From: Dehalococcoidia bacterium
Lineage (GTDB): Bacteria; Chloroflexota; Dehalococcoidia; Lucifugimonadales; UBA3495
Assembly (NCBI GenBank): GCA_965261195.1
Contig: CBDHDC010000002.1
Span: 35,266-99,265, forward strand
DNA: 64,000 nt
Direction of reading: 5' to 3'
Shown here: positions 22,809 to 52,255 of the stretch, piece by piece
Layout of the letters: each line of letters starts with the position of its first letter
Position numbering within the stretch: position 1 is the stretch's first letter
Made by a program: the position numbers and the translations under genes
The notes under the pieces: model-generated
The model's input: only the letters and a program-made list of their open reading frames with translations
What the model was told of the DNA's origin: nothing
Databases searched by the model: none

Positions 22809-22844
22809 GGTGGGACGGGGGGTGTCTTCCGGTTCTGGGGATGG

Positions 22845-23633: not shown

Positions 23634-23788
23634 GCCTTATGTTGGCCACGAGCGGAGCGGTGTTCTTGGCGATGCGTAAGCGAAGTGAGTGGCCAAAAGC
23701 GAACAGGAATGGGACTCTGTCCCTTCTGTTCCTCCTGTTCGCCTCTGTTCGGGTGATTTTCGATCAGTGATAACAAGGGTTTCCGGCC

Positions 23789-23876
23789 GTCATGTTGTAG
23801 GGGTAGATCGGTCATGTTGTAGGGGTAGATCGGTCATGTTGTAGAGGTAGATCGGTCATGTTGTAGGGGTAGACCG
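23789..23876. repeat. four tandem 22-bp iterons (oriV-like)
   Basis: GTCATGTTGTAGGGGTAGATCG occurs four times head to tail, with one substitution each in units 3 and 4. The array starts 52 bp beyond the 3' end of the putative rep gene. Confidence 0.85.
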
Positions 23877-23927
23877 CTGGGCCTAGATAGTTTTCTACAG
23901 AGATTTCCACAGGGCAGCTTCAGCAGA

Positions 23928-29214: not shown

Positions 29215-29392
29215 GCTCGACTTTGTACAATTTTGGTCCAGTCAGTGCGTATAACAGACCGCTTGTATCAAGCACTGCAGCGATGCCAAGGCATCGCTGA
29301 ACGTCGCCTGCTGCCTTGGCATACCAGGCGAGCCGGCGTACCGATAGGCCACCCCCCAGGTACAGACCGTGCCTCTTACGGACACCCAGCAG

Positions 29393-29918
29393 ATGACAGC
29401 AACCCTGATCGGCTACGCCCGTTGTTCCACGGACAAGCAAGACCTGACGGCACAGAGACAGGCACTCGCCGATCTCGGCGTCGCACCGGATCGCATCTAC
29501 ATGGACAAGGGTCTGGCCGGCACCAACCGCGCCCGGCCCGGCCTGGATCAAGCCATGGCAGCAGTGCGCAAGGGTGACACCCTGGTGGTGCCAAAGCTGG
29601 ACCGCTTGGCCAGATCGGTTCCCGATGCCCGGCACATTGCCGATCAGCTGCAGGCCAAGGGGGTGAAGCTCGCCCAGGGCAGTAATATCCATGACTCCAG
29701 CGACCCGATGGGCAAGATGTTCTTCAATATCTTGGCCACCTTTGCCGAGTTCGAGGCCGACCTCATTCGGATGCGCACGCGTGAAGGGATGGCCATCGCC
29801 CGTGCCAAGGGCAAGTTGCGGGGCAAACAGCCCAAGCTCTCCGAAAAGTAGCAACGGGAACTCTGCCGCATGCACGCCACCGGCGACTATTCTATCAGCG
29901 ACTTGGCCGAGGTCTTCG
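29393..29918 (+). pseudogene. serine recombinase (resolvase), copy 1: in-frame TAG and 3' truncation
   Basis: MTATLIGYARCSTDKQDL...KLDRLARS... has TAG at 29849-29851 where copy 2 has CAG. Homology to copy 2 (59132-59709) ends at ~29918. Confidence 0.8.
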
Positions 29919-30070
29919 GGGAGTGCCAAAAAGTGTGGGCGACTGTGGATCTGTGCGTGCGAGGGAAATTCGAGACGTGGCACCCAGGATCGAAGGTGCC
30001 TGGGATCGGATGCCGGAACTGAAACATGCGTCGCCTGAGTGCCCCCCGCTTTTTGGCACTCTCGGCAGAA

Positions 30071-30108
30071 TGGCGTCATCGCAAGGTTTGTATCCAGAAT
30101 TACTTTAA
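30071..30108 (+). repeat. 38-bp Tn3-family terminal inverted repeat, IRa
   Basis: GGCGTCATCGCAAGGTTTGTATCCAGAATTACTTTAAG has the same length and inner ...AC.TTAAG end as Tn3 (GGGGTCTGACGCTCAGTGGAACGAAAACTCACGTTAAG). Confidence 0.75.
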
Positions 30109-30212
30109 GGCCACATAAGGCTGTCTGGGGCAGGGTGACGTGTTTAACACACTGTATTAAAATATCAAGACAGGAATTGCAGAGTGAACTGACGCCGCCG
30201 GAGGACATCTTC

Positions 30213-30671
30213 ATGGGAAATACGCCGTGCACGAGTTTCAACCTGCCCGCCGAATTCGTGTCAAGGCTCGATGAACAAGTCGAAGCTCTGAACGTCAACC
30301 TTCCAATGAGCACAAACCGAACCGCTCTGATGCGAATGGCCTACTACAAGACGATCAGGGAGGATTCGGCAACACATGGCAAATTCAGGACTGCAATTGC
30401 AAAAATGCAGGCGGGCGACGTGCAGGGTGTCCCTTCCCAGATCGTATCGGTACGCCTTTTGACCGACATGCGGGACGGGCTGAATGCGCTTGCTGAAAGG
30501 TATGGCATCAGCGTGTCATGCGTCATGACGCTGATGTTGGAAATCTCGCATCAGCAAATCGGCATCAAGGAGGGCAAGACGATCATCGGCATGCCTGTGG
30601 AGGCGTGGAAATATCGACCGCTCCGCATTTCTGATAATGACGCGGCAAGGGATCACCGGGCGGGGTCATGA
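30213..30671 (+). CDS. putative tandem ribbon-helix-helix DNA-binding protein
   Basis: Internal ATG at 30213. TSFNLPAEFVSRLDEQVEAL and IVSVRLLTDMRDGLNALAERYGISVSCVMTLMLE look like two CopG/Arc-type RHH units. Confidence 0.5.
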   Translation: MGNTPCTSFNLPAEFVSRLDEQVEALNVNLPMSTNRTALMRMAYYKTIREDSATHGKFRTAIAKMQAGDVQGVPSQIVSVRLLTDMRDGLNALAERYGISVSCVMTLMLEISHQQIGIKEGKTIIGMPVEAWKYRPLRISDNDAARDHRAGS

Positions 30672-30874
30672 TGGGCCATGAATTGAACGCACGGAGCAGG
30701 TCGGATCGCGGTGGCGGCGTGGTTCGACGGCATCTGGGGACCGAAAGGAATGGCTGGAACACGGAAGGCGGAACAGTGATCCTGCCCGGCGAACCCGGTA
30801 TTGACTGTCTGTCACGGATCATGACGGAGTGTCGGACGGGTTTTCTGATCCGTTCCGTGGGGTTCCGTCCTGAT

Positions 30875-31345
30875 TCAGCCATGCCTGCTCTTCGCCTTGG
30901 CGGGAACACTCGTCTCGAATTCCCGTTCGGTTCCTCGCAGCCATCGCTCCAGGTCCAGCAGGGTTCCGGGTTCAGCCTCCTTGTGCAGTGCACATTCCCA
31001 GACGATCGCGACCCGCCAGCCAACCTCGAGCAGGCGGTGCCGATTGCGCCGGTCCCGTTCCGTGTTGGTGTTGAACTTGGCCTGCCAGAACTCCCTGCGG
31101 GTGGCCGGGGTGGTTGTGTACGGGCAGCCGGCATGCCGGTGCCAGAAGCACCCGTGAACGAAGCATGCCGTCTTGAATTGACGAAACACGAGATCAGGAG
31201 TGCCGGGGAGTTTCCGGTCATGCAGACGGTATCTCAGGCCGCGGGCATGAAGGGCCCGGCGAAGAGCGAGTTCGGGCTTTGTATTCCTGCCGCCGATTCC
31301 AGCCATCATGCGCGAACGGGTAGCCTGATTCACTATGTCCGGCAT
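30875..31345 (-). CDS. vsr: very-short-patch repair endonuclease Vsr
   Basis: The translation contains TKPELALRRALHARGLRYRLH...PGTPDLVF...ACFVHGCFWHRH...EFWQAKF..N..RD. Confidence 0.9.
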   Translation of the reverse strand: MPDIVNQATRSRMMAGIGGRNTKPELALRRALHARGLRYRLHDRKLPGTPDLVFRQFKTACFVHGCFWHRHAGCPYTTTPATRREFWQAKFNTNTERDRRNRHRLLEVGWRVAIVWECALHKEAEPGTLLDLERWLRGTEREFETSVPAKAKSRHG

Positions 31346-31560
31346 CGTCGATCCTGCGAGGTATTCAGGCGGTACAACCAGAAAAGGGTCTCACGGAAAG
31401 TCCCGTCTTGGTGCCGGCGCGCACGCGCGGACAACGGGAATCCTGTTTCCGGAGCCAGCCGTGGAGCGGTCGGGAAGCACGTTTTCCTGCGGTTTTCCGA
31501 TTCCGGGCAGTCGGCAGTACCGACGGTTTCCATGTCGTCTCGCCGTCGAGGCGGAAAGCC

Positions 31561-33237
31561 GTGAGACGGAAAATCGTGCCAATCGTGGACCTGTTTTCGG
31601 GTCCGGGCGGTCTCGGAGAGGGATTCTCCGCATATCGGAGCCCGGGTGACCGACGCAGATACCGCGCAGCCTTGTCCATCGAAAAGGATCCTTCTGCGTA
31701 TCGTACGCTGCGGCTGCGTGCCTTCCTGCGCAAGTTCAGGGCAGGCTTCCCTCCAGAATACTACGATTTTCTGAATGGCGTGATCCCGAAGGAGCCCGAC
31801 TGGGCGAAGCTTTATCCCAAGCACTGGACTGCTGCCTGCGACGAGACCCGGTGCCTGGAACTGGGGACGTCCTCTGCCAGTACCTTCCTGGAGCAGCGGA
31901 TCGCACGAATCCGGACAGAGCACGAGGGACGGACCGTGCTGCTCGGGGGCCCGCCGTGCCAGGTCTATTCCGTGGCGGGCAGATCCCGAAATTCCGGCAA
32001 GATCGGATACGATGCCGACGAGGACGATCGCCAGTTGCTCTACGAACCTTACGTGCAGGTGCTCTCTCAGCTTCAGCCGGCGATTGCCGTCATGGAGAAC
32101 GTCAAGGGGATGCTCTCCGCGCGGCGGAACGGAAGACTGATCTTTCCGGAAGTGATGCGTAAGCTCCGGCATGCGGGCAGCATCAATGCGTATCAGCTGT
32201 TTGCGCTTGCTCCCCCCTCGGGGATCTGTTCCTGGGACGAGGCATCGAAGCCGAGGGACTTCCTTGTGCATGCAGAGGAGCACAGCGTGCCGCAAGCCCG
32301 CCATCGCGTTTTCGTCATCTGTGTGCGACGCGATGTTGCTGAAGCGCTTCCGGAAGAATGTCTGCCGCGACTCGATCGACAGGATGGCACGGTTTCGGTT
32401 CGTGACATCATCAGTGCCATGCCGAAGCTTCGCAGTCGCCTCAGTCAGAATGACGATCCCGGCTCGTGGCAGGACGCCGTGCGATCGGTCTGCGAACTGA
32501 TCCTCGCGCATCGGCCGATGATGTCCCAGGATGAGGAAAGACGGTTCCGGATGGCTCTTGGCCGTGCCTTGCTCACTGCCAAGGGGGCCGCGCCGCCGTG
32601 GCGGGAAGCACGTGGCGGGCTTGCCTTGCCTTCCGGTTGTCCTGCAGACCTCCGCGACTGGATATCCGACGAGAAGATCGAGGTGCTGCCCAACAATGAG
32701 ACGAGAAGGCATATCCCCGCCGATCTCGCCCGCTACCTGTTCGCCGCGGCGTTCGTTCGCGCCTTCGGGCGATCTCCGAAGACCCCGGATTTTCCCGAGG
32801 CGCTGATGCCGGACCACGCGAACTGGAGCACGGGGATGTTCGACGACCGCTATCGGGTGCAGCTTCTCGATGGGCCGTCCACGACGGTCACGAGTCACCT
32901 CTCAAAGGACGGCCACTATTTCATTCATCCCGACCCGGCTCAGTGCCGGAGCTTTACCGTGCGGGAGGCGGCACGCCTTCAGACCTTTCCGGACAACTAC
33001 CTTTTCCACGGCAGTCGCACGCAGCAGTACATTCAGGTGGGCAATGCAGTCCCGCCTTTTCTCGCTTGGCAGATTGCCCGGGCTGTCTGGGGCATCATTG
33101 ACCATCATGATCATATCGCGGCACGTACGCGACCACGCGTTCGGCCCTCTCTGGGCAGACAGCCCGTCGTCGCATTGCACAGACCACTCGACCGCCAAAA
33201 TACCAAGGGCGACTTCTGCGCAACAGGGAAAGCCTGA
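31561..33237 (+). CDS. dcm: DNA (cytosine-5)-methyltransferase (GTG start inferred)
   Basis: Motif I is [15 protein letters not shown], motif IV is GGPPCQVYS, then MENVKGM, and motif X is QTFPDNYLF...QVGNAVPP. Confidence 0.9.
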
Positions 33238-33238
33238 C

Positions 33239-35494
33239 ATGGAGATGCGGAGAGAAGCGAATGCAAGAAACAGTTCAGATCGTCTAGACAAGAAGTATCT
33301 GAGGCCTGCATTCAGAATGGCCGTCCTCAATGGTGCTGTGGAATCGGTCCGTTTGCATCTTCGTGCTGGGGAAGATGTTAATGCGGTTGACGAAAAAGGC
33401 CGTTCCCCCTTGATGCTTGCCGCATCCAAAGGACGTGTCGATATTTGCGGTCTGCTGTTGGCCGAGGGAGCCGATCCTGCACTTAGAGACAATGGCGGGA
33501 ACGATGCCCTTATCTTGGCTCTTGGCCAAGGCCGAACTGAGATTGCAACACTTCTTTCCAATGCTTGTGCGGCAGTCGAAGGGCCATTGCAGCACAATGC
33601 CGGAAATGACGACGATCAGGCCCTCAGGCGATACCAGACTTCTTCTCACCCAGATCAAAATGACGGGATGGGGACTGCGAACGAGACGGTCCTTTGCGAT
33701 CAAGGTTTTTTCGCTGCTGGACATGGCATCCCAGAAGACAAAGCATTTGGAAAATGCCAAGTTCCGGGGTCCCGCTATTGGCGGGACACGAACGAACTGC
33801 TTGACCTCTCCGCTTGGGAGGAGGAAACCGACGGGCCTCCCCCGACGAATGACCTGTCATGCGCCAAGGAGGCGACAGACCTTCAAACTCGGATCTCCGA
33901 TCACACCCCGATCGACACGGACGAAGGTTGGGAAGAGGTCACGGTGGACCTTCCCGATCTGGATGACCTTTTACGCCGTCACATTCCGCTGAGTCCGCAG
34001 GATGAGCAATCGCTCCGGACACTGGTTCTTGAGGGATTAAGGGATAAACACATACGGAACGAAAGAATTATCTCTGCGCTTCCCGTGGAAACTGAGGATG
34101 ACGCATCCGTCGGAGAGGACCTAGGGGGTTGCCTGCGGCTGGTCCTTGGCGACCTTGGCGTCGTGGTCGATGATGACCCCTTCGCACTGGAAACCTTCAT
34201 CCATGCCGACGAGGATGAAGAAAGGTTTGGGGACCAAGTCAGCGAAGCGCTTGCGTTTCTCGGTCAGCTTTGGGCGAACCAGGTCAATCCTTTCGCTCTC
34301 TACTGCAAGGAGCTAGGGGTTGACCTTCTGACGCGGGAAGACGAAACAGCGCTAGGAATGGCCATGGAGGCGGGAAAAATTGATGTGCTGACGGGCTTGG
34401 CCAGGAGTCCGGCGACAAGATCAAGACTGCTTGCCGATGTGACAGGTGTACTGAGCGGTGACACTCCAGTGCGTAGCATATTCGCTGTGGGCAGGGGGGG
34501 CGAGAGCTCTGACAACGAGGCCAGGAGCGCCGAAGTCCAGAACGAGGATGATCAAGTAGACGGTGTGTTTACTTCCGAAGCGGGCAACCCATCGCTGCTT
34601 GAGGATATTTCGAGACCTTTGAAGATGATAATGAATTGTTGCCTGCAGGCTGAGCCGGATGTGGCCAAGCTTGCGGATCATCTTCTGGAGGCAGAGCCTG
34701 AACCAGGATATTTCATGGAACTAAGGCGGATTGCCGAACAGGATCCGCTGTGCGGAGATGCAAGGCAGAGGATCAAGTCAGGACTCGAAAAAGCTGAAAC
34801 CGCAAAAAAACGTCTTGTGGAAGCCAATCTCAGGCTTGTGATCTGGGTTGCAAGGAAGCACGGTGGCTTGCCCCTCATGGACAGGATACAGGAAGGCAAC
34901 ATAGGCCTTATAAGGGCTGCCGAGCGATTCGACTACAGGCGCGGCACAAAATTTTCCACTTTCGCTGTCTGGTGGATCCGCCAAGTGATCAATCGCGCAG
35001 TTGATGACCAAGCAAGAATTATCCGCCTCCCGGTGCATGTGCAGGAAAACTCTCGCAAGGTCGAAAGGGCTGAAGCACAGGTATATTCCGAAACTGGACG
35101 TGAGCGGGATATCCATCGAATCGCCAGTGTCACGCAATTACCTTTGGACCGGGTGGAGAGACTTCTGGATGTCCCGGACGAACCAATTCCGATGGAAGAC
35201 GCATGGGACAAGGTTGTGCGTCTCGCTGACGAAGCCATCTCAGCACCGGAAGAAATCCTGGCCATTTCTGAAATGCCAGCCTTTGTAAGAAGCTACTTGG
35301 ATTGTCTGGATGAAAGAGAGAAGGACATCATCTGCCGGAGGTTCGGCATGGGTTGCGATGAACAGACGCTTGAGGAGATCGGACAGTTCTATGACCTCAC
35401 GCGGGAACGCATCCGCCAGATTGAATCCAAGGCATTGGAAAAGCTCGCCCATCCCGGTCGCATCAATCAGTTGCGGGATCTCTGGCAATCATGA
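33239..35494 (+). CDS. ankyrin-repeat / sigma-70 (RpoD-like) fusion protein, 751 aa
   Basis: The N-terminus has ~4 ANK repeats ([51 protein letters not shown]). An acidic linker follows, then region 1.2-like [20 protein letters not shown]. Region 2 reads [61 protein letters not shown], and region 4 reads [25 protein letters not shown]. The ATG is 1 nt after the dcm stop. Confidence 0.85.
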
Positions 35495-37032
35495 TCACGC
35501 CTTCAAACACAACGTTACCGCCGGGATCCCGTTACGCCCCGCCGCGCGCCGCGGCCATGATCGAGGCTCTTCGCGGTATCGGCTATTCCACCGCTACTGC
35601 CCTTGCTGACATTATCGACAACAGCATTTCGGCAAGTGCCCGGTCCGTGGATCTCGTTTTTGCGTGGAATGACGATGGCAGTCATGTGGCGATTCTGGAT
35701 AACGGGACCGGCATGGACGCTGCTGAGCTCGACTCCGCAATGCGCCTTGGCGCACTCAGTCCGCTCGATCCGCGAGAGGCAGGTGATCTAGGACGTTTCG
35801 GCCTAGGTCTAAAGACGGCATCGTTCTCGCAATGTCGAAGGCTTACGGTCGCCAGCATCAAGGGTGGTTGCATGAATTGTCTTCGCTGGGATCTCGATCT
35901 CATTGCATCCAACCCGGACGACGACTGGCTTCTTCTTGAAGGGACGGCAAAGGGATCAGAGAGCCTGCTGAAACCCCTGCTCAGATCCGGAAGAGGGACA
36001 TTGGTCCTCTGGGAGCGCTTGGACAGGATTGTCACTTCCGGCTTCACGGAACAGGACTTCCTTGATCTGATAGACGCTGTGGAGCGGCATCTAGCCATGG
36101 TGTTTCACCGCTTTCTCAAGGGTGCCCATTCCAATCTGCGCCTTTCCATCAATGGGAAAGCTGTGGCGCCATGGGATCCGTTCCTCAGGGATCATCCGGC
36201 GACATGGTCTTCTTCCGTGGAGAAGATTCCCAGCCCGTCCGGTGCGCTGGAGGTGCAGTGCCATGTCCTGCCGCACAAGGACCACCTCACAGCTCGCCTG
36301 GAACAGTCCGCCGCCGGACCGCATGGCTGGACGGCACAGCAGGGTTTCCATGTCTACCGGAACCGTCGCCTTCTTTTGGCCGGAAGTTGGCTCGGACTCG
36401 GGCAGGGAAGACTATGGACCAAAGAGGAGGCCCATCGCCTTGCCCGGATACGGCTTGATATCCCGAATTCCGCTGACGCCGACTGGAAGATCGACATCCG
36501 CAAATCGACAGCAAGCCCACCTGTGAGGCTGAGGGAACAACTGACGCGACTGGCAGATGACACCCGTGAGCGGGCCCGAAGGGTGTTCGCCCATCGTGGG
36601 CAGCCGGTCTCTGTACATGCCAACCGTCCAGTGATACAGGCGTGGCGAGCGGAGCATTCGGCAAGCGGCATCCGGTATCGCATCCATCATGAGCATCCGG
36701 CGGTTCGAACGGTGCTCGACGAAGCTGGCGGTCTTGCTGCCAAGATCAAGGCGATGCTTCGGGTGATTGAGGAGACGGTTCCAGTGCAGCGGATCTGGCT
36801 CGATACGACAGAAGGGCGGGAGACGCCGCGCAATGCCTTCTCGGGGGAGCCTCCGTCGGAAGTTCGTGCGGTGCTCATGGTAATGTACCGAAATCTGGTC
36901 TTGTACAAGGGTGTCTCCCCGGACTTGGCGCGGGAACAACTGCTTCACACCGAACCGTTCGACAACTACCCAGACCTCGTTGCAACTCTTCCCGACAATC
37001 CGCAAGCAGGAGGAGACAGTGTCGGCAACTGA
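35491..37032 (+). CDS. GHKL (HATPase_c_3 / MORC-like) ATPase
   Basis: The translation contains [19 protein letters not shown]...ILDNGTGMD...[13 protein letters not shown]. The start overlaps the sigma-fusion stop (ATGA). Confidence 0.85.
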
Positions 37033-39826
37033 CTTGAGAATTATCAAGATCGTTCAGGAGCTGCTTTTCGATCAGGACGGCATGGTTGCGGTCACGCCAG
37101 CCCTGATCGCAGAAAAGATCGATTGTGCCCTCGCGCTGAATTCGAGGTGGCGAGATGAGCTGGATCGCCAAGCAGTAATGGATGAACTCATCCGCCGCTT
37201 CAGCCTGTGGATCGGCCAGGACGCCACGCTTCAGAGCGGTGAAGGACATAGGGATTGGCTGACCGCAGGGCGCAAGCAGGACTGGCGATATTGGCGGCGT
37301 TTTCGCGATTGGCTGGAGGGCCAGCTCGCAATCAGAGCCGTGGATGCCCTCGACCGTTCCACCGATTCCGTCCTCTCCCTGTTGGAGGACCCATCTCGCG
37401 AGGGCCCTTGGGACCGCCGTGGGCTTGTTGTCGGGCATGTGCAGTCGGGCAAGACGAGCCACTACAGTGGCCTCATCTGCAAGGCCGCGGATGCCGGCTA
37501 CAAGATCATCATCGTCCTCGCGGGACTGCACAACAACTTGCGCGCACAAACTCAGGTGCGCCTGGACGAGGCGTTTCTTGGTTTCAAGACCAGTGCCATC
37601 GATGGCGACCCCTTTGTAACCATAGGCGTGGGAAAATTCGATTCTGACCAAAGCATACGGCCGAACTATGCCACGAACCGCACAGAGAGGGGCGATTTCA
37701 GCACTCGAATCGCCCGCAGCCTCGGCATCACCCCGGAACAGCGCCCTTGGCTGTTTGTGGTCAAGAAGAACAAGACTGTTCTTGAACGCCTGCTTGGCTG
37801 GATACACAACCACGCGGCCGACACACACGACAGGGAGACCGGGCGGCCCATGGTCACCAACCTCCCGCTCCTTCTCATCGATGACGAGGCCGATCACGCA
37901 AGTGTGGATACCAGGGAGATGCTGCTCGACGAGAACAGCGAACCGGATGAGGAACACAAGCCTACAACGATCAACCGGCTTATCCGCAGCATCCTGTACA
38001 GTTTCTCGCGATCCGCATGTGTTGGCTATACCGCAACGCCTTTCGCGAATATCTTCATCCACGAACAAGGCCGCACGCGCGCGGAAGGCTCGGACCTTTT
38101 CCCCGAGGCGTTCATCATCAATCTGGCGGCGCCTTCCAACTATGTCGGTCCGGTGAAGGTATTTGGGAGTCGTGTTGAAAACGGACGCAGTGGCGGGCTA
38201 CCCCTGGTGCGTCAGGTGACGGATTTCCATGAATGGGTACCGACAGGGCATAAGAACGGCCACCAGCCCCTTTGCGAGGGAATGGACGAAATTCCTCCAT
38301 CCCTAAGCGAGGCCATCAACGCTTTTCTTCTTTCCTGCGCATTGCGGCGGTTGCGCGGCCAGGCAAGGGAACATTGTTCAATGCTTGTACACGTCACCCG
38401 CTTCACTTCGGTCCAGCGAACGGTTCACGCCCAAATTGGGGATCAGGTGCGCCGTCTGAACCAGCGGCTTGTCCGTCGCATCGGTCATGAGTCGATCCTT
38501 GCTGAACTGCGAGCGTTATGGGAGCGTGATTTTGTTGCCACCACTGCCTTCTTGGCCGACGAATCTGAAGATATCAGACGCTATCGGAACGTGCGGTGGG
38601 AGGAGGTCGAAGCGACCCTGTCGGAGGTCGTCGCCGACATCCAAGTACGGATGATCAACGGGACCGCCGGGGATGCCCTGGACTACGCCGACAATCAGGA
38701 AATAGGGCTGAAGGTGATCGCCGTTGGCGGCGACAAGCTTGCGCGCGGACTTACCCTCGAAGGATTGACCGTCAGCTATTTCCTGCGTGCTTCCAAGATG
38801 TACGACACCCTGATGCAGATGGGGCGCTGGTTCGGCTATCGCCCAGGGTACATCGATCTGTGTCGGCTCTATACCACTCAGGATTTAGTCGAATGGTTCG
38901 AGCATATTGCAGATGCCTCGGAGGAACTTCGCGAGGAATTCGATTTCATGGCAGCAAGCGGTGCAACGCCACGGGAATACGGTCTCAAGGTGCAGTCCCA
39001 TCCGACGCTCATGGTGACATCGAAGCTCAAGATGAGAACAGCCAGGGATCTTGAGTTGTCTTTCAGCGGCCAGCTTCTGGAAACTGTGACCTTCTACCGA
39101 GAGCCCAGCATTCTTCAGGGGAACCTTGATGCCGCGGGAAGGTTGCTTTTGTCGCTCGGCACGCCGCAATCTAATCCGAGGCGACGCGGCAACGCCTGGG
39201 AAGGAAGCCATCTGTGGGAGGGCGTGCCGGCCACCGATATCGTCACTTTTCTTGACGGCTATCGGAGCCACCCGGAGGCACACAAAGTCAACAGTGCCCT
39301 TCTCGCAGAGTTCATTCGGTCGCTTGCTTCGGAGAACGAGTTGACTCGATGGACGGTCGCTCTTATTGGTGCGAGTAGGGGCGAAGGGAGTATCTGCCCC
39401 CTTTCTGGTGGAATTGTGGTCAGAATGCTGATGCGCTCCGCGCATGGACGGCATCCCGACCGCTACTCGATCGGCCGTCTCATGTCACCCCGTGACGAGG
39501 CTATTGACCTGAATGAGGCTACGTGGATGGAAGCCCTGGACAAGACGATCGAGGCGTTCCATGCCGATCCCGGGAGGAGCAATTCCAGGGAAGAGCCTAC
39601 AGTGCCCAGCGGAAGGGCCATCAGGGATGTTCGCCCCAAGGCTCGTGGCGTCATGTTCCTTTATGTGCTCGATCCGACCTTGGCCGGTCCGGGTTCCGGC
39701 TTGTCGGAGCAATCGCCGCCGGTCTTGGGTTTCGCCCTCAGTTTCCCCGCGAGCAATTCAGGAATCCGCGTGAAATACAAAGTCAATAACATCCTCTGGG
39801 GACAGGAATATGGCGGCTCCGAATGA
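37019..39826 (+). CDS. Z1-domain protein (P-loop / helicase-like)
   Basis: GTG start after AGGAGGAG. Motifs are GHVQSGKTSHYSGLICKAADAGYKIIIVLAG, LLIDDEADHASV and LARGLTLEGLTVSYFLRASKMYDTLMQMGRWFGYRPGY. Confidence 0.85.
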   Translation: MSATDLRIIKIVQELLFDQDGMVAVTPALIAEKIDCALALNSRWRDELDRQAVMDELIRRFSLWIGQDATLQSGEGHRDWLTAGRKQDWRYWRRFRDWLEGQLAIRAVDALDRSTDSVLSLLEDPSREGPWDRRGLVVGHVQSGKTSHYSGLICKAADAGYKIIIVLAGLHNNLRAQTQVRLDEAFLGFKTSAIDGDPFVTIGVGKFDSDQSIRPNYATNRTERGDFSTRIARSLGITPEQRPWLFVVKKNKTVLERLLGWIHNHAADTHDRETGRPMVTNLPLLLIDDEADHASVDTREMLLDENSEPDEEHKPTTINRLIRSILYSFSRSACVGYTATPFANIFIHEQGRTRAEGSDLFPEAFIINLAAPSNYVGPVKVFGSRVENGRSGGLPLVRQVTDFHEWVPTGHKNGHQPLCEGMDEIPPSLSEAINAFLLSCALRRLRGQAREHCSMLVHVTRFTSVQRTVHAQIGDQVRRLNQRLVRRIGHESILAELRALWERDFVATTAFLADESEDIRRYRNVRWEEVEATLSEVVADIQVRMINGTAGDALDYADNQEIGLKVIAVGGDKLARGLTLEGLTVSYFLRASKMYDTLMQMGRWFGYRPGYIDLCRLYTTQDLVEWFEHIADASEELREEFDFMAASGATPREYGLKVQSHPTLMVTSKLKMRTARDLELSFSGQLLETVTFYREPSILQGNLDAAGRLLLSLGTPQSNPRRRGNAWEGSHLWEGVPATDIVTFLDGYRSHPEAHKVNSALLAEFIRSLASENELTRWTVALIGASRGEGSICPLSGGIVVRMLMRSAHGRHPDRYSIGRLMSPRDEAIDLNEATWMEALDKTIEAFHADPGRSNSREEPTVPSGRAIRDVRPKARGVMFLYVLDPTLAGPGSGLSEQSPPVLGFALSFPASNSGIRVKYKVNNILWGQEYGGSE

Positions 39827-40829
39827 CATGGACGGTCTTCGTGCCGCTTGGCGGGCGCTAGCCAGCAACCGGCATGGCGAAGGTTGGCGAACTATTCCGA
39901 TTACAGTCCGCGCCCCCTGCGCGCTCTTTGCCGGCAGACGGATGCCCGGTGGCGAGGAGGCCATGCTGATCGGATTCCGTACCATCCGCAATGTTCCGGA
40001 TTCCCATCTGCCCCAAGGCCGTGGGTTCCAGGTTTGCAGGCTCCAAGCCGACCCAACCGGCGACGGCCGTACCATGTTGGCGTTGACCCGGGCGTCAATC
40101 GGAAGCCCCGAGCTGTTCGCCATGATGGCCGAGGATATGGTCGACCTTTTGAACGGCTGCACGACATCGGAAGAAGAGGAGGTTTTCCAGCGTTTCCTCG
40201 CACGCATTCGCGCTTGGCAGGACTTCATGGACCGACGCAAGGAAGGGGTTCTTTCTGCAGAGGCTGAGCAGGGCCTGTTCGGGGAACTCGTTATGCTGGA
40301 GTGTATGATGGACACGGGTGTACCGGCGAGGGATATCCTGGATGCTTGGCAGGGGCCGCTGGGCGGTCTTCAGGATTTCATACTTGGCACCGGTGGTATC
40401 GAAGTGAAGACGACCCTTTCCGCTGTCGGATTTCTCGCGATGGTGTCTTCCCTTGGGCAACTAGACGAGGATCTGCGTCAGCCGATCTTCTTGGCCGCCG
40501 TCAGGCTCGCCCTTCATCCTTCCGGCACGACGCTCGTCGAAATGTCTGACGCCATAAGGACGAGGCTTGGCGACAATCAAGGTGCGCTTGAAATATTCGA
40601 GACCCGCCTGATGCAAGCCGGTCTTCTCCGTACGGCGGCCGGACGGTACACTCGTCGCTTCCTCCACGCCTCCAGCGCCATCCTGGCCTTGCAGGAGGAT
40701 TTTCCACGATTGACGCGCGCTAACGTCCATCCCGTGATCAGGGAGGCCTGGTACGAGATCGATCTCGATCTGGCTGGAGCGGAGGATATCGGCCTGCAAG
40801 GGGCGCTTGAATCTTTGGGGGCAATTTGA
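39810..40829 (+). CDS. PD-(D/E)XK-motif protein (DUF4420-like)
   Basis: LQDFILGTGGIEVKTT is a D...E.K nuclease-like core. The gene overlaps both neighbours. Confidence 0.7.
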   Translation: MAAPNDMDGLRAAWRALASNRHGEGWRTIPITVRAPCALFAGRRMPGGEEAMLIGFRTIRNVPDSHLPQGRGFQVCRLQADPTGDGRTMLALTRASIGSPELFAMMAEDMVDLLNGCTTSEEEEVFQRFLARIRAWQDFMDRRKEGVLSAEAEQGLFGELVMLECMMDTGVPARDILDAWQGPLGGLQDFILGTGGIEVKTTLSAVGFLAMVSSLGQLDEDLRQPIFLAAVRLALHPSGTTLVEMSDAIRTRLGDNQGALEIFETRLMQAGLLRTAAGRYTRRFLHASSAILALQEDFPRLTRANVHPVIREAWYEIDLDLAGAEDIGLQGALESLGAI

Positions 40830-42622
40830 TGGAGCTGGGGGAATTCCTATTGCAGACACGGGCGGAGGTGAAGGAGGAGATAGCCGACCGTCTCTCCGTT
40901 CCGGGCGGCGCCTACCCGTACGAGGAAACGGTCTTCACCGAGGTGATCATGGAACACATGACAGAGGTGGGAATGACCTTTGAACCGCAGGCATGCCATT
41001 ACTCGGCGACCGTCGGCAACGCCAAGCTACGTCTGAGTGGCTTGGCAGTCTCGGATGACGGCGACCAACTCGACCTCTGTGTAAGTCTCTATGAAGGTGT
41101 GGAGACGTTAACCCCCATTTCCGACACTGAAACCAAGAAGGCTGCCGAACAGTGCCTCCGTTTTCTGACCAGATGCGCCGAGGGGCGTCTTGCGTCGATG
41201 ATGGATCAGTCCAACGACGCTTACAGCGTTGCACACACCATACATGAGAGTTACCCCTCGCTCGATCAGATCCGCATCTTTGTCCTGACGGACAGACTGG
41301 CGAAGACGAAGAATTTCAAGACCCGAAACGTAAAGGGCAAGACGATCAAGCTGGAAGTCATGGACATCGAACGACTCTGGCGCCACTGGGCGGAAGGCAA
41401 GCCTCGAGACGAACTGGTGGTCAATTTCGAGAACGTGTCCGGCAACCCCTTGCCCTGCGTCTACATACCTGGTGAAGAGATGACGGACTACGATTATGCC
41501 CTCACCGCCATCCCCGGCGAGGCACTGCGTTTCGTCTACGAGAAATACGGCTCACGGTTGCTGGAAGCCAACGTCCGCTCTTTCCTCAGTGTAACCGGCA
41601 AGGTGAACCGGGGGATCCGGGACACGCTGAAGGAAAACCCCGAACAGTTCATGGCCTTCAACAACGGCATCGTTGTTGTCGCAGACGAAATTCATTTCGG
41701 CCGGACCGCCGATGGCGCCCCCAGCATCTCTTGGTTGAAGGGCATGCAGATTGTCAATGGCGGCCAGACGACGGCGTCCCTCTATTTCACCAAGAAGAGA
41801 AACCCGGAAATCGACCTGCGACGCGTCCGTATTCCTGCCAAGATCATTGTACTCCGCTCCCAAGATGTCGATGGAGAGGAGGGATTGATTTCCGACATCT
41901 CGAAATACGCCAACAGCCAGAACTCAGTGAAACTATCCGACCTGTCGGCGAACAAGCCCTTCCACGTCAAAGTTGAGCAGTTGTCTCTCACGACCTACTG
42001 TCCCGATGGAGTCAGCCGCTGGTTCTACGAGCGGTCGGCAGGAAGCTACAAGACCATGCTGGCGCGTGAGGGAACGACGCCCGCACGGCTCAGAAAGCTC
42101 AAGAATGACATCCCATCATCCCGAAAGATCACCAAGACAGACTTGGCGAAGTTCCTGAACGCTTGGGACTGCAAGCCTCAATTTGTCAGTTTCGGCGCAC
42201 AGAAGAATTTCGAACGATTCATGGAAAATGTCGGGGATAGTGAGCATCAGAGCGCGGCACCCCTCCCCGATCTGGCGGAATACAAGCAGATGATTGCAAG
42301 GGCGATCATTTTCAAGACAACTCACAAGCTGGTCAGACCGATGTTCCCCGCCTTCCAGGCCAATGTCGCCGCCTACACCGTGTCTGTGCTGTCCTCACGG
42401 ATCGGCAGCCGGCTTGATCTCGACAGAATCTGGCAGCAGCAGGCCATCTCCGCGCGGCTCGGAGAACAGGTCCATATCTGGGCGCGGGAGGTGAACGACC
42501 TGCTCTACGTCAGCGCCAACGGGCGGATGATTTCTGAATGGGCCAAGAAGGCTGAATGCTGGGAAACTGTGCTCAACAGAGATCTCTCCACGCCGCTCAC
42601 CGGTATCCCGGAAATGCGATGA
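40826..42622 (+). CDS. AIPR (abortive-infection phage-resistance) family protein
   Basis: The layout and blocks (FLSVTGKVNRGIRDTL...FNNGIVVVAD...VNGGQTT) fit the AIPR family. Confidence 0.8.
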   Translation: MMELGEFLLQTRAEVKEEIADRLSVPGGAYPYEETVFTEVIMEHMTEVGMTFEPQACHYSATVGNAKLRLSGLAVSDDGDQLDLCVSLYEGVETLTPISDTETKKAAEQCLRFLTRCAEGRLASMMDQSNDAYSVAHTIHESYPSLDQIRIFVLTDRLAKTKNFKTRNVKGKTIKLEVMDIERLWRHWAEGKPRDELVVNFENVSGNPLPCVYIPGEEMTDYDYALTAIPGEALRFVYEKYGSRLLEANVRSFLSVTGKVNRGIRDTLKENPEQFMAFNNGIVVVADEIHFGRTADGAPSISWLKGMQIVNGGQTTASLYFTKKRNPEIDLRRVRIPAKIIVLRSQDVDGEEGLISDISKYANSQNSVKLSDLSANKPFHVKVEQLSLTTYCPDGVSRWFYERSAGSYKTMLAREGTTPARLRKLKNDIPSSRKITKTDLAKFLNAWDCKPQFVSFGAQKNFERFMENVGDSEHQSAAPLPDLAEYKQMIARAIIFKTTHKLVRPMFPAFQANVAAYTVSVLSSRIGSRLDLDRIWQQQAISARLGEQVHIWAREVNDLLYVSANGRMISEWAKKAECWETVLNRDLSTPLTGIPEMR

Positions 42623-42972
42623 AGCCAAGGTGGATGATAGCCCATGCCGGAATATTGACAGGGGCATTGACCCAGCCCAGGCTTTCGCGTAAGTCAGACA
42701 AGGTCTTGATCTTGAACCCGGATACGCATATTGCATAGGATTGGCGGAGAGACTCCGTTGAGAGCTGACATAGTGCCTTGACCTGGGAATGGTGTAAAAA
42801 TCGGCCTGACTTTCGGGAACATTGATGGTCGTCGATCCAGGCCCTTGAATCGGGGTCGCAGTTTGAGATATTCCAGGGTCAGGGATGGCCTTGCCGCAAA
42901 TCGCGTAGCGCTCAAATGCGCAAGCGGAAGCGTGACAGGCTCCACCGAGTCCAATGGTGTGTGAGAAAGCTT

Positions 42973-43227
42973 ATGAATGAATGGCCGTTGCAGGATGCCA
43001 AGAACCGATTCAGTGCCATTGTCGATGCCGCGGTCGCGGGGGATCCGCAAAGGGTGATCCGACGCGGAAAGCCCGCGGTTGTAGTACTCGCAGCCGAAGA
43101 ATATGAGCGACTCTGCCAACTGGAGAAAACAAAGGCACCAACGTTCGCTGAATTGCTGCTCGCGATCCCGCAGGATGACGGAGAATTCGAGTCGCTCCGA
43201 CTGCCCTCCCGACCGGCTGACTTTTGA
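42973..43227 (+). CDS. Phd/YefM-type antitoxin (partner of VapC)
   Basis: The translation begins MNEWPLQDAKNRFSAIVDAAVAGDPQRVIRRGKPAVVVLAAEEYERL. It overlaps vapC by 4 nt. Confidence 0.85.
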   Translation: MNEWPLQDAKNRFSAIVDAAVAGDPQRVIRRGKPAVVVLAAEEYERLCQLEKTKAPTFAELLLAIPQDDGEFESLRLPSRPADF

Positions 43228-43634
43228 TGTTCCTGATCGACACGGATATTCTGTCGGCCCTGCGTAAACGACAGCGCAATCCACATGTCGTCCAATGGAT
43301 GCTGGATCAGCGGATGACGGATTTGTACTTGAGCGTGGTGTCCCTTGGGGAGATCGAGCGGGGAATCACGCAGCAACGTCACCGCGACCCAACGTTTGCG
43401 CATGTGCTGACCGCTTGGTTAGACAACGTGCTCGCGTTGTACCACACGCGGATTCTCGACGTTGACCTGCCTACGGCGCGGCGATGGGGCCGTCTATCCG
43501 CCGCGCTCGGGCATGAAGGTGCTGACCTGTTGATCGCGGCCACAGCGCTCGAACACGGATTGACGGTGGTGACCCATAACGTTCGGGACTTCGAACCGAC
43601 GGGAGTGCCGGTGCTGGATCCCTCGGTCCTGTAG
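43224..43634 (+). CDS. vapC: PIN-domain toxin VapC
   Basis: The translation runs MFLIDTDILSAL...SVVSLGEIERG...DLLIAATALEHGLTVVTHNVRDF. Confidence 0.9.
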   Translation: MMFLIDTDILSALRKRQRNPHVVQWMLDQRMTDLYLSVVSLGEIERGITQQRHRDPTFAHVLTAWLDNVLALYHTRILDVDLPTARRWGRLSAALGHEGADLLIAATALEHGLTVVTHNVRDFEPTGVPVLDPSVL

Positions 43635-43796
43635 GGATGAAGATATGAACCCATCCCTTAAGGAATCGGGGTCAGTGGGGGCAGCCGCTCAGTTGGACCG
43701 CCTGAACGTGCTGAAGATAGGGCATCTACGCGTGCCGTTGACACCTTTCAGGACCAGCTTGTCCCACCCGGCCGTCTCGTCTATTGGCATGATAAT

Positions 43797-44813
43797 TCAG
43801 GAGGCTGATTCACGGGTTCCCCGAAGAAATGTTTCCCACCTTTGTGCAAGTGCTTCACGGCTGGGGCCGCTCGTCGCCCGCACGTCGACCTTCAAGCCGT
43901 GGAGTGCCTCGTATCCGGCTTTGCGGGCGGCGGGCGACATGTGCACTTCGTGCGTGTCCGGATCGATACCCATAAGGTCGAGATCAAACAAGGTGTGCAG
44001 GTCAGCCCGAAGCAGCAAACCGTTGTCCGGATGGTTATCGGAGAGATTCCGATACGGCCAGATGTGGGCCGCCTCCACGATATCGACGAGCAGACATCTG
44101 GAAACCATGCATCTGGGGCCGTATCGCCTGATCAAATTGTTCCGGAATGTGCGTTGGCCACGACGCGCGCGAATAGTTGTCAGCACCTTTTCCCGGCTAT
44201 CTGTGGCTGAAGGCTGGTAGCCTGCTGGGGCTTCGTCATCACGATCGTCCGCGTCGTTCGGCGTCAGCGATCTCGTTTGGGCCGCGCCCGCAAGCAGGTC
44301 TGCCAAGTATGGCACCTGAGAGCGAAGCGCGAGACGATCTGGATTCAGCTCCTCAATCGATATTTGATCGCTGGGCCTTAAGGCTGCCTTCTTGATTTCG
44401 GATGTCTGGATGTCCACCGGCGGCGATTGGAATGTTCCCTGGAAGTGCGCCTCGTAAAGCGTGACCGTAACCGTCTCCTCCGCAGGGTCACTAAACTCGT
44501 GGCCTTTGTTACATCTCCAGCGTGGTGACTTTGTCCTTCGCTCCTTTATTCCGGTGGTGCCGCACATCGGGCACCGGAATCGCTGTTTCGATCCCTGACG
44601 AGAAGTCACCTGCTCGACCCTTGCTACGCCAAGCATTCTGTTCCGATCACGGAGCAGGACGACGTCTCCTGCGGAAAGCTGGAGGCTGTTGGCTACGTCA
44701 CTATCGTAACGATAGACCTCGGTGAGGTCGTCCTCGTAACCTGTGTTCCCTGCATACTGACGTCTCCCGGTTATGACGATCAGCGCCCAAGCTCTTCGAC
44801 CGACAACTTTCAT
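43797..44813 (-). CDS. HNH (HNH_2-type) endonuclease with an N-terminal PUA/SRA-like domain and a zinc ribbon; type IV restriction-like
   Basis: The C-terminus reads RGQRTFRNNLIRRYGPRCMVSRC...EAAHIWPY...DNGLLLRADLHTLFD. The centre has CPMCG...RWRCNKGH. Confidence 0.75.
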   Translation of the reverse strand: MKVVGRRAWALIVITGRRQYAGNTGYEDDLTEVYRYDSDVANSLQLSAGDVVLLRDRNRMLGVARVEQVTSRQGSKQRFRCPMCGTTGIKERRTKSPRWRCNKGHEFSDPAEETVTVTLYEAHFQGTFQSPPVDIQTSEIKKAALRPSDQISIEELNPDRLALRSQVPYLADLLAGAAQTRSLTPNDADDRDDEAPAGYQPSATDSREKVLTTIRARRGQRTFRNNLIRRYGPRCMVSRCLLVDIVEAAHIWPYRNLSDNHPDNGLLLRADLHTLFDLDLMGIDPDTHEVHMSPAARKAGYEALHGLKVDVRATSGPSREALAQRWETFLRGTRESAS

Positions 44814-45139
44814 TTTCTCACTCTTGTTCAGCCCCGCCTGCCGTATCAGATGGCCCGGAGAACCCGATGACGGCTTTGGCCCCGGTTGAGTTGTGTGAGG
44901 ATACGCCGAGGATAGGCCGTGTCGTCGACATAGTTGAGCAGGTTGATGGCCTTTTGTTGACCCGTCCCAGTTCCATGATTGTCAGCGGCAGGCTGGAGGG
45001 ACATTCGCTTCTCAGAAAAGAGCGCACCAGTTCCGAGGCCTGCACGGTGCCGAGCTTAGCGCAACTTCTCGTTCCAATGATTGTCACGGGCCGAATCCGG
45101 GCGTGGCAGCCCAGGTCTGTCCAGGCTGCCTTGGCTCTG

Positions 45140-45177
45140 CTTAACGTAATTCTGGATACAAACCTTGCGATGACGCC
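45140..45177 (-). repeat. 38-bp Tn3-family terminal inverted repeat, IRb (inverted relative to IRa)
   Basis: The reverse complement is GGCGTCATCGCAAGGTTTGTATCCAGAATTACGTTAAG. It matches IRa at 37 of 38 positions and has the canonical ACGTTAAG inner end. Confidence 0.8.
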
Positions 45178-45208
45178 GATCGCCCAACAAGTTGAAAGGA
45201 GAGCCAAA

Positions 45209-45988
45209 ATGTCAAGGCAGCTTCTGCTCGATCTGAATGGCAACAATAGCGGATTGTTTCTAAGGTGGTTAAATGCTTTCGATGGGGAACCAAGGATTGC
45301 CTGGTACCCTTCCTCTGGTGAAGATTTCAGAGATTTACTTTATCTGAACCCACGATACTCAGACCTCAGCCCTGCAACCAGAGCAGAACCTCGACACCCT
45401 GACATTTTTCTGCATACAGACTATTTCCCATGGGAAAGAGCGGCCCTTTTGCATGAGAGGGTGATCTACGATGATCTCAGGACCGTGGTTGAACGTCGCG
45501 GTATAGAAGAATTGCCAAGGTGCAATCTTCCCATCGATCCAGGAATCGTGGACTTCCCTGAAGGGGGTCCCGCGACTGGCCGTGTGGTTTTCCTGGACAT
45601 TTCTGTGACCTCGGAGAAACTGGGCAGCTTTTCTGCTCCTGTTGTTTATGCCTTCGTTGAAAATGAGGCTTTTTGTGCAAGGAAAATTCTCGCCAAGAAA
45701 GGAAAGATGTCGCACGTGATTCATGTCCGTTATGGTGGTGGGGCTGGTGGAGGAGGAAAATCATCTGGCATTTGGTTGTTAAATGTCTTGCGGAAGATAC
45801 AGTGTGAATGTTTTGTAACAGACAGCCACCACCACAGGCAAACAGGTGACCAACGGACCTATGGACTTTATCCTGATCTTTCGGGGAATGAGGATACAGA
45901 ACAACTTGAAGGGCCAATAAGAACTGTGTCCAGTAAAAGTTGGTCTTGCAATGGATGTGTCTCATGGAAAATTATTCGGCCAGCCTGA
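45209..45988 (+). CDS. hypothetical protein (259 aa), low-GC ORFan
   Basis: ATG at 45209 after AAAGGAGAG. GC is visibly lower than the surroundings. It contains a Gly-rich stretch, RYGGGAGGGGKSSG. Confidence 0.55.
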   Translation: MSRQLLLDLNGNNSGLFLRWLNAFDGEPRIAWYPSSGEDFRDLLYLNPRYSDLSPATRAEPRHPDIFLHTDYFPWERAALLHERVIYDDLRTVVERRGIEELPRCNLPIDPGIVDFPEGGPATGRVVFLDISVTSEKLGSFSAPVVYAFVENEAFCARKILAKKGKMSHVIHVRYGGGAGGGGKSSGIWLLNVLRKIQCECFVTDSHHHRQTGDQRTYGLYPDLSGNEDTEQLEGPIRTVSSKSWSCNGCVSWKIIRPA

Positions 45989-46266
45989 CAAGGGGCTTCC
46001 ACGGCACGGTACCTGTGCAGGGCAATCGCATTTTAACGATGCCAACAGTGGGCTCTCTCCAGGCCCTATGATAGGTTCCTCAGGTCGCTACACTTACTCC
46101 CCGTGTCTCGTTTCGACTCAGGAGCCCGCAGGTTCTTCAGCATCAGGACAGGGGCGGAACTGTGCTTCTCAGGAACGCGGCGCTCGCGTTCGACAGCCGC
46201 ACTTCGGCCTTTTAGGGTTTGCGATAGTAACGGAACAATTTTGGACATCAAGGGATCCAGCCACTT

Positions 46267-46294
46267 GGTTCCGATAAGTCGGCTTATGTCAACT
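46267..46294 (+). other. dif/Xer-like site a
   Basis: GGTTCCGATAA-GTCGGC-TTATGTCAACT, compared with E. coli dif GGTGCGCATAA-TGTATA-TTATGTTAAAT. Confidence 0.6.
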
Positions 46295-46521
46295 TTGACT
46301 TGGCGTGGTTGCTGGCTGAAATGGCTTTCGGACAGGCTTTCCCACCGGCGCCGGGACGCCCCGGGCCTGAAAGGTTCGGGGCCTGCATCCGGGTGGAGCG
46401 CCGGTGGGGTCGGTTGCAGAAAAGGGCGAAATGACAGTGCTAAGCGCCCGATCCAGTAGCCGAGTGAGCAAGCGGCTGTCCGCCCCAGAAGACTTGTGCT
46501 TCGCCACACGACGCCTCTGGT

Positions 46522-52227: not shown

Positions 52228-52255
52228 ACTTCGGATAAGGGCGGTTATGTCGCCT
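52228..52255 (+). other. dif/Xer-like site b
   Basis: ACTTCGGATAA-GGGCGG-TTATGTCGCCT. An extra left-arm-like ATTCTGATAA lies 35 bp upstream. Confidence 0.6.

Follow-up and report, generated by a model that had tools for sequence, protein, structure and literature searches.

The DNA described here, called the window throughout, is a stretch of 64,000 nucleotides from a Dehalococcoidia bacterium (contig CBDHDC010000002.1 of assembly GCA_965261195.1, positions 35,266 to 99,265), and the feature under study is a 15-kb segment in which a set of anti-phage genes lies between two inverted 38-bp sequences, IRa and IRb, that appear to be terminal repeats of the Tn3 transposon family. IRa (30072-30109) is on the plus strand and reads GGCGTCATCGCAAGGTTTGTATCCAGAATTACTTTAAG; IRb (45140-45177) is on the minus strand and differs from it at one of the 38 positions (T/G at position 33). 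A third copy of the terminal repeat, IRc (60113-60150, minus strand), shows four mismatches to IRb over the 38 positions, the first 21 nucleotides being identical. The tip of the window repeats is GGCGTC and their inner ends read ACGTTAAG, ACTTTAAG or ACGCTAAG. A search of the window for the 38-mer with up to three mismatches returned two copies and a search for the 21-mer tip returned three, the chance expectation of both being 0.00 (100 dinucleotide shuffles). The outer 5-bp flanks are AGAAT at IRa, GATCG at IRb and AACTA at IRc. An earlier note, made from the letters of this DNA alone, had read these three differing flanks, the single mismatch between IRa and IRb and the common orientation of IRb and IRc in the same way; its coordinates agree with ours for IRb and IRc, and had placed IRa one base too far to the left.

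The genes between IRa and IRb begin with an open reading frame (ORF) of 152 aa on the plus strand (30213-30671) without a Pfam or PADLOC match, followed by vsr on the minus strand (30875-31345), coding for a very-short-patch repair nicking endonuclease (PF03852; PADLOC Vsr, 3.5e-36), and by a dcm-type C5 cytosine methyltransferase gene on the plus strand (31561-33237; Pfam DNA_methylase, 2e-37; PADLOC DrmMII/MTase_II). Next on the plus strand comes the mzaA-E operon (33317-42622), identified by Pfam and PADLOC: MzaA (ankyrin and sigma-70; 33317-35494; PADLOC 3e-67), MzaB (GHKL; 35491-37032; 2e-203), MzaC (Z1; 37019-39826; E=0), MzaD (DUF4420; 39810-40829; 6e-52) and MzaE (AIPR; 40829-42622; 3e-236). 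A Phd/YefM antitoxin gene (42973-43227) and a PIN toxin gene (43227-43634), both on the plus strand, and an HNH_2 nuclease gene on the minus strand (43797-44813) complete the set. With all five Mza proteins beside a Dcm-type methylase (PADLOC; Pfam GHKL, Z1, DUF4420 and AIPR), the defense system of the cargo is, judged by its domains, of a known type, Mza, which we take to correspond to the methylation-associated system MADS. Compared with Mza as defined in PADLOC (MzaA-E), the system here adds Vsr and sits between transposon ends on an inferred plasmid. MzaA fuses ankyrin repeats to a complete sigma-70 protein (regions 2, 3 and 4), an architecture unusual for a defense operon. The only match to an exact-protein look-up of MzaE was the source contig. 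Most of this gene content had been listed before: the series named sigma-GHKL-Z1-nuclease-AIPR is MzaA-E, the pair called VapBC is a toxin-antitoxin pair of the Phd/YefM-PIN type, and the 'RHH gene' is present as the ORF at 30213-30671, the family assigned to it finding no counterpart in Pfam or PADLOC.

Neither an intact tnpA nor a remnant of one was detected in the window by tblastn with three TnpA proteins of the family (E<1e-3), and the ORF listings (at least 120 aa over 1-30100, at least 70 aa over 27000-64000) hold no frame of about 1,000 aa except a Type ISP enzyme, in agreement with the earlier statement that the window has no transposase gene. Nor was tnpA found in the 8.2 kb read past the right edge of the window. 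Between IRa and IRb, tblastn gave no resolvase homolog, and no resolution module was found there.

Elements with tnpA between repeats of this kind do occur in other genomes. A scan of one genome per species for the 21-mer tip returned 13 loci from five bacterial phyla, namely from Entotheonella/Tectimicrobiota, Nitrospira, Terriglobia, Robiginitomaculum and Latescibacterota metagenome-assembled genomes (MAGs); in a scan of Joint Genome Institute (JGI) metagenomes, GGSGTCATCGCAAGGTTTGTA occurred at only 7 loci, none of which was a new complete cargo-bearing element. Both scans required the exact 21-mer, so that diverged copies escaped. In every tip locus the similarity starts sharply at GGCG, and the outer flanks are unrelated and mostly A/T-rich. 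A protein with the domains DDE_Tnp_Tn3 (PF01526) and DUF4158 (PF13700) lies just inside the repeat at loci L013, L002 and L011, and the same tip bounds elements with a 984-aa TnpA and a serine resolvase at L013, L046 and L044/45; that the repeat bounds an element with TnpA (PF01526) is thus seen in related loci (L013, L002, L011, L044, L045 and L046) and not in the window itself. Locus L013 is a complete element of 3804 bp with divergent tnpA and tnpR: a repeat at 749-786, tnpA (984 aa) on the minus strand, tnpR at 3861-4490 and a repeat at 4515-4552, with a perfect 5-bp duplication, TACCC, on both sides. Locus L046 is a complete copy of 3794 bp whose repeats equal IRa and IRb over the first 32 nucleotides. 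The flanks of L009 agree at four of five positions; no duplication was found at L046, at L043 (the Actibacterium element) or at five of the six truncated elements that run from repeat to repeat.

A protein search with the L013 TnpA returned many full-length relatives. Two of them, P0002 (92% identical) and P0003 (87%), lie in tnpR/tnpA elements whose repeats match IRa and IRb over the first 32 nucleotides; P0002 occurs in two samples from which sister plasmids of the window were likewise recovered (ERZ25068966 and ERZ25071132), and the P0002 element is a possible helper for the IRa-IRb segment. Within PLSDB the closest TnpA (64% identical) belongs to Roseobacteraceae plasmids (Actibacterium), with repeats GGCCCC...ACGCTAAG (GGCCCCATCGGAAGGTTTCTTCGTAGAACCACGCTAAG) that match the window repeats at 27 of 38 positions and likewise start with GGC. 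From these copies, the parent is reconstructed as an element of about 3.8 kb with the order repeat, tnpA, res, tnpR, repeat and with 38-bp repeats that are tipped GGCG, not GGGG.

That tip might be taken to mean that the 38-mers are an unrelated dispersed repeat family, Tn3-like by chance, and the lack of duplications at most related elements running from repeat to repeat points the same way. Against this reading stand the TnpA directly inside the repeat at several loci, the duplication at L013 and the occurrence of GGGG-tipped variants of the same repeat among the related copies. Tn3-family repeats have a G-rich tip and an inner end ...ACG(C/T)TAAG. The 38-bp length and an inner ACG(T/C)TAAG are shared with Tn3 and Tn21: IRb agrees with the Tn3 repeat at 19 of 38 positions and with the Tn21 repeat at 20 of 38, the agreement being clustered at the tip GG.GTC and at this inner end. 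The repeats of Tn3 and Tn21 used for this were confirmed as exact 38-mers in more than 4000 PLSDB plasmids each. In the literature, Tn3-family elements are defined by repeats 38-40 bp long, a TnpA near 1000 aa in size and a res/resolvase module (PMC7157771), and a tip other than GGGG is documented in TnXax1 (GAGGG; PMC4337579). An unrelated repeat family is thus scarcely conceivable, and the window 38-mers are, by these comparisons, genuine Tn3-family terminal repeats. The earlier note had assigned them to the family by length and inner end and had named the finding of an unrelated dispersed repeat as what would overturn the assignment; the TnpA inside the repeats, the sharp start at GGCG and the L013 duplication exclude that outcome, and a matching tnpA, which it proposed to look for in the rest of the genome or plasmid, exists in other genomes (L013, L046, L044/45).

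Entotheonella/Tectimicrobiota genomes hold many shortened copies of the element, consisting of a repeat, the last 40 or so tnpA codons, tnpR (full-length in most) and a repeat. Examples are L001 4918-6027, L004 1819-2624, L005 1827-2789 and L009 3029-3881, together with two larger ones, L033 8116-10719 (2.6 kb, with an insertion sequence inside) and L012 2614-6788 (with an additional DUF6880 gene).

Comparison with these copies assigns each window repeat to one side of the transposon. IRa is a tnpR-side end, with family homology over 48 bp only, to 30119 (the repeat plus GCCACATAAG), and is 94-98% identical to L013 4505-4552 and L004 1819-1866. The IRb end (45093-45177, minus strand, 85 bp) consists of IRb and 47 bp of the tnpA side, made up of the spacer and a few final codons of tnpA. 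Its identity is 96% to L005 1827-1909 and 88% to L001 4918-5001, two sites that adjoin remnants of the TnpA C-terminus, and the sequence inside the repeat at the tnpA end of L046 aligns with it as well. The IRc end (59816-60150, minus strand) comprises IRc and tnpR-side sequence, about 335 bp in all. Directly inside IRc lies a decayed, internally deleted tnpR remnant coded on the plus strand (59816-60056; Pfam Resolvase, 1.3e-10), which is 64% identical to residues 14-94 of the L013 TnpR; it is the tnpR of the transposon itself. Between the two ends of an intact copy there are 1-2 mismatches, and between IRa and IRb there is one. As compatible partner ends in the correct orientation, IRa and IRb thus form a bracket that resembles a mobile insertion cassette (MIC), and their complementary types and inverted orientation give moderate support to a partnership.

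A sequence of 35-54 bp that adjoins the IRb end on its inner side (45039-45092) has copies in three further settings: it is found outside a repeat in L001 (4866-4919, also 425-459) and immediately downstream of 197-aa resolvase genes (L029 10602-10636 and L033 7385-7419), among these places the AbiEii junction in a sister plasmid.

Resolvase genes and a further repeat surround the transposon ends. Outside IRa lies the resolvase pseudogene psi1 (29393-29918, plus strand), which has an in-frame TAG at 29849 and whose C-terminal helix-turn-helix is replaced by a repeat of about 150 bp resembling a miniature inverted-repeat transposable element (MITE). The MITE-like repeat (29918-30065) occupies the space between psi1 and IRa and has terminal inverted repeats GGGAGTGCCAAAAAG.../...CTTTTTGGCACTCTC. 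At least three copies with 78-81% identity exist (window 29918-30065 and 470-616; L032 5031-5177), without a clear duplication at them; an Rfam scan of the whole window at gathering thresholds gave no match, so the repeat is not a known RNA. A second pseudogene, psi2 (59132-59710, the start being approximate; plus strand), is frameshifted, 93% identical to psi1 and located just upstream of the IRc end remnant. Between IRb and IRc an intact gene for a 192-aa serine resolvase is found (55479-56057, plus strand; 52% identical to the L013 TnpR). The two pseudogenes had been recognized earlier; the decayed tnpR and the intact gene had been overlooked. Inverted 14-mers, GTGTCCGTAAGAGG and CCTCTTACGGACAC, lie upstream of the psi-type genes, and the homology between psi1 and psi2 begins exactly at the gene-proximal half-site. 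The res sites themselves are expected in the tnpA-tnpR intergenic region of the parent elements. An insertion of IRa-IRb into psi1 was considered and rejected, as the sequence from 45178 onward gave no convincing continuation when compared with psi2 after the break.

The window is 99.9-100% identical to positions 13831-77830 of contig ctg57189_6x_c (104,692 bp; ENA ERZ25068833), the suffix '_c' of which suggests circularity. A ParA protein, a 628-aa gene and iteron-like repeats suggest that the replicon is a plasmid of about 105 kb. Five iteron-like repeats of 22 bp are located at 23767-23898, and tandem arrays with units of 117/118 bp and 244 bp at 22300-23332, the copy number of these longer repeats varying among sister contigs; both sets adjoin parA and an ORF of 638 aa without a Pfam match (628 aa in the sister contigs). 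This neighborhood (22300-23898) is probably the replication/partition region. A near-identity DNA search of PLSDB with 29000-46000 gave weak resolvase matches only and hence no known plasmid relative of this segment. Several window segments show 92-96% nucleotide identity to Tectimicrobiota MAGs, and a tentative placement of the host in Tectimicrobiota is based on this identity.

Sister contigs were recovered from several samples by look-up of exact window proteins. Among them every repeat has one invariant outer junction, with the flank 'tcggcagaat' at IRa (4 contigs), 'ttgggcgatc' at IRb (4 contigs) and 'aggcgtagtt' at IRc (5 contigs), and neither an empty site nor a second insertion site was present among the loci fetched. 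Sister plasmids with the same ParA-AbiEi/AbiEii backbone part from the window at 29218, 4 bp past the AbiEii stop codon, and continue with a helicase/SNF2/MmeI-type methylase system (L022, L025, L026 and L027) or with a resolvase (L029). The left limit of the accessory region is therefore 29219, which puts psi1 within the region and IRa 850 bp inside it. From 29219 onward the region is a defense hotspot, in which sisters carry a 1723-aa DEAD/MZB helicase, an SNF2 protein and an MmeI-type methylase, presumably a DISARM-like candidate system.

A contig of 303 kb, ctg585275, shares with the window the backbone, psi1, IRa, the whole Mza operon and the Phd/PIN pair, leaves it at 43642, eight bases past the PIN stop codon, and continues with res-like repeats, a 217-aa resolvase gene and a DnaE-like gene; in the 8 kb after PIN it has no HNH gene and no copy of the repeat. 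At the same point (43642), L049 has an insertion sequence. The 217-aa resolvase after PIN was examined in L047 as the cognate tnpR and rejected, being only 44% identical to the TnpR of the family. A DUF7663 gene (45209-45988, plus strand) lies directly outside IRb and, in related contigs, always occurs with IRb and HNH. The resulting HNH-IRb-DUF7663 block (43643-46331) is 98.4-99.9% identical in L015 and L016, crosses IRb into the unchanged outer flank and stops at an insertion sequence; a dif-like site first considered for the break at 46331 in these two loci was set aside, the break being caused by the insertion sequence about 35 bp further on. L016 also carries an IS21-type element (2537-4675; rve and IstB) between HNH and IRb, with the window sequence 44966-44971 on both of its sides, apparently a recent insertion that duplicated 6 bp. 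Around the third repeat, a UvrD-IRc-tnpR'-psi2 block is kept in five contigs, with differences only beyond psi2. In L031 the MITE-like repeat passes at its right end directly into internal mzaE sequence (30063 to 41764), with loss of IRa and most of the operon; microhomology was considered as the cause and does not explain the join. The breakpoints among relatives are thus at 29218, 30063/41764, 43642, 46331 and about 59100 (a cluster at 59092-59110), and no observed difference between relatives has a repeat as its boundary. The data show that the IRa-IRb structure is fixed and not recently mobile.

These junctions bear on the proposal that IRa-IRb is a live MIC, functional, moved in trans by autonomous copies of the same community and spreading Mza. 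It would draw support from two intact repeats that equal those of the autonomous copies over the first 32 nucleotides, from the presence of autonomous tnpA and tnpR copies in sister samples, and from the MICs and TIME-type elements known for the family, the latter of which have been shown to transpose (PMC4337579, PMC4133298). The single junction per repeat in 4-5 contigs, the lack of a duplication and of a second insertion site, the lack of an internal res for cointegrate resolution and the variant without IRb (ctg585275) nevertheless make this proposal quite improbable. The earlier note had likewise held that the 15-kb segment could be a mobile unit and had suggested looking for it at other loci with 5-bp duplications; related contigs offer no such case, and the fixed junctions, the sister without IRb, the block that runs across IRb and the breakpoints located elsewhere all speak against it. 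It would come as a surprise, going by the repeats and flanks compared here, if the segment were still a functional cassette with the full Mza system, Vsr/Dcm, the toxin-antitoxin pair and HNH, moved in trans by the 3.8-kb GGCG-tipped transposon. Were it one, it would be a vehicle spreading multi-gene defense among plasmids of uncultured Tectimicrobiota-like bacteria and, without res, would move via plasmid cointegrates.

The same contigs also bear on whether IRa and IRb ever belonged together. They could be unrelated solo ends of separate insertions, each stripped of its other end and its genes, so that the bracket is coincidental. IRa without IRb in ctg585275, the fact that HNH and DUF7663 accompany IRb throughout, on either side of its outer boundary, the lack of a duplication and the proof by IRc that solo ends exist in the same region are all in line with this, as is the occurrence of the 45039-45092 segment elsewhere outside a repeat or by resolvase genes, which marks the joint as rearranged. 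What tells against coincidence is that end types and orientation are exactly those of one element, that the two repeats differ by a single nucleotide, no more than the paired ends of intact copies do, and that neither end retains more than a non-coding terminal segment. We regard unrelated ends as rather unlikely, though worth serious consideration.

The reading favored here, with cautious confidence, is that all three repeats are relic Tn3-family ends, that IRa-IRb, a MIC-like pseudo-transposon and probably the decayed outline of a single earlier element, has become fixed in an island shuffled by resolvases and insertion sequences, and that IRc is a separate solo end. One element would have lost its tnpA-res-tnpR core, and Vsr/Dcm, Mza, Phd/PIN and HNH would now stand in its place. 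TnpA supplied in trans from an autonomous copy could bind both 38-bp repeats, by the established mechanism of the family, and then drive replicative transposition into an AT-rich 5-bp target; as neither a cognate res nor a tnpR lies inside the bracket, resolution of the cointegrate would fall to host recombination. Assembly and reshuffling of the island would have taken place elsewhere, at points marked by insertion sequences or by resolvase genes and their res-like sites. The earlier description of a non-autonomous, MIC-like layout, with cargo between inverted repeats and neither tnpA nor a duplication, holds up. Its alternative, a rearrangement mediated by the repeats, comes closer to the evidence as to rearrangement and fails as to the repeats, the events mapping to resolvase sites and insertion sequences.

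Several points weigh against the favored reading. No 5-bp duplication exists in any pairing of IRa, IRb and IRc, nor does one appear when the ends are moved by one base or when inverted 5-mers, as left by an intramolecular inversion, are considered; direct proof of a past transposition of IRa-IRb as a unit is therefore lacking. Because ctg585275 has IRa and Mza without IRb, the two repeats are not always linked, and its state could be the ancestral one, IRb having arrived separately with the HNH-DUF7663 block. Unrelated solo ends would give the observed geometry in about one quarter of pairs by chance. IRb is identical to the L005 end and IRa is one mismatch from the ends of L001 and L004, so that the likeness of IRa and IRb is no proof of partnership. 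Finally, a resident tnpA or further copies of the repeat may exist in the remaining 32 kb or so of the likely source plasmid.

Three breakpoints have a resolvase gene beside them: 29218 is followed by psi1, 43642 by the 217-aa gene, and the cluster at 59092-59110 is close to psi2. The reshuffling fits site-specific exchange at putative res-like sites. Such exchange at res is known for Tn3-family elements and for their toxin-antitoxin modules beside res site I (PMC7157771). Some further breaks in the region are explained by insertion sequences. Such reshuffling, or recombination between transposon copies, would erase a target duplication, which may be why none is seen; copies that lack one are common in this family.

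Other putative recombination sites were observed in the island. Four dif-like sites with the 11-6-11 XerC/XerD layout occur in the same orientation (46267-46294, 52228-52255, 53011-53038 and 63275-63302; e.g., ACTTCGCATAA-GGGTGG-TTATGTCGCCT), a loose dif pattern giving 5 matches against 0.42 expected. The segments that they delimit in the island's right half measure 6.0, 0.8 and 10.3 kb, an arrangement suggestive of Xer-type modules. The motif ATAGTAAYGGAACAATTTTGG recurs at module borders (46209-46262, 52055-52108, the junction 29218-29245, and L022 and L029 just after AbiEii). At 29218, type B/C sister plasmids have its left half (AATAGGTAGGAACA) and the window its right half (ACAATTTTGG), the pattern expected of a putative site-specific recombination site. 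Further genes of the window include those for a Type ISP restriction-modification enzyme of 1634 aa (47020-51924, minus strand), a TPR protein on 102-nt tandem repeats (53244-54530, minus strand), an AAA_21/SMC-like ATPase (56191-57870, plus strand) and a TnpB of the OrfB_IS605/Cas12f-like type (4142-5236, minus strand).

Among known systems, the closest likeness is to the MICs of Xanthomonas that derive from TnXax1 and carry transcription activator-like effector (TALE) genes (PMC4337579; PMC7157771). They too hold passenger genes between inverted repeats without transposition genes, lie near solo repeats in a plastic, transposase-rich region, have a tip other than GGGG and do not always show a 5-bp duplication; duplications were found for only some of them, and solo repeats were reported (PMC4337579). 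The TnXax1 MICs carry effector genes between 92-bp repeats, whereas the window has a 15-kb anti-phage set between 38-bp repeats, at one known location, without a duplication and in an uncultured, different host lineage. Of the features of a MIC, passenger genes between inverted repeats without a transposase are present here; no duplication, additional insertion site or empty site was found that would indicate transposition of the whole segment.

The TIME, TIME-RES and TIME-COMP elements (PMC4133298; PMC13367494) are likewise non-autonomous Tn3-family derivatives that can be moved in trans by a cognate TnpA, and TIMEs transposed experimentally with 5-bp duplications (PMC4133298). TIME-RES, the 'portable resolvase', is a close analog of the 0.8-1.1-kb elements L001, L004, L005 and L009 (repeat, truncated tnpA, tnpR, repeat) and of the 2.6-kb copy in L033. 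TIME-COMP is bounded by two complete miniature elements, whereas each end of the window structure has one repeat within 48 bp (IRa) or 85 bp (IRb) of end sequence; with single repeats as its bounds, IRa-IRb is neither a TIME nor a TIME-COMP.

The autonomous elements L013 and L046 resemble the Tn3/Tn1000 organization in their 38-bp repeats ending in ACG(T/C)TA(A/G)G, in a TnpA of about 985 aa and in a divergent serine resolvase, and L013 also in a 5-bp duplication in an A/T-biased target. They differ from this type in that the parent tips are GGCG and the nearest TnpA from a plasmid of a cultured organism (Roseobacteraceae) is 64% identical. The IRa-IRb structure is best filed beside the MICs and solo repeats of the Tn3 family (PMC4337579).

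Element type, cargo and decay all fit known MICs, solo repeats and res-mediated mosaics, which limits the wider value of the finding. The practical gain is a parent transposon and a repeat consensus that can be used for annotating these genomes. For the biology of the organisms, the structure presents a complete Mza system framed by transposon-derived sequence, the plasmid hotspot that it occupies holds a different defense system in sister plasmids, and Tn3-family elements with their truncated derivatives shape the plasmids of uncultured Entotheonella/Tectimicrobiota, Nitrospira, Latescibacterota and Terriglobia.

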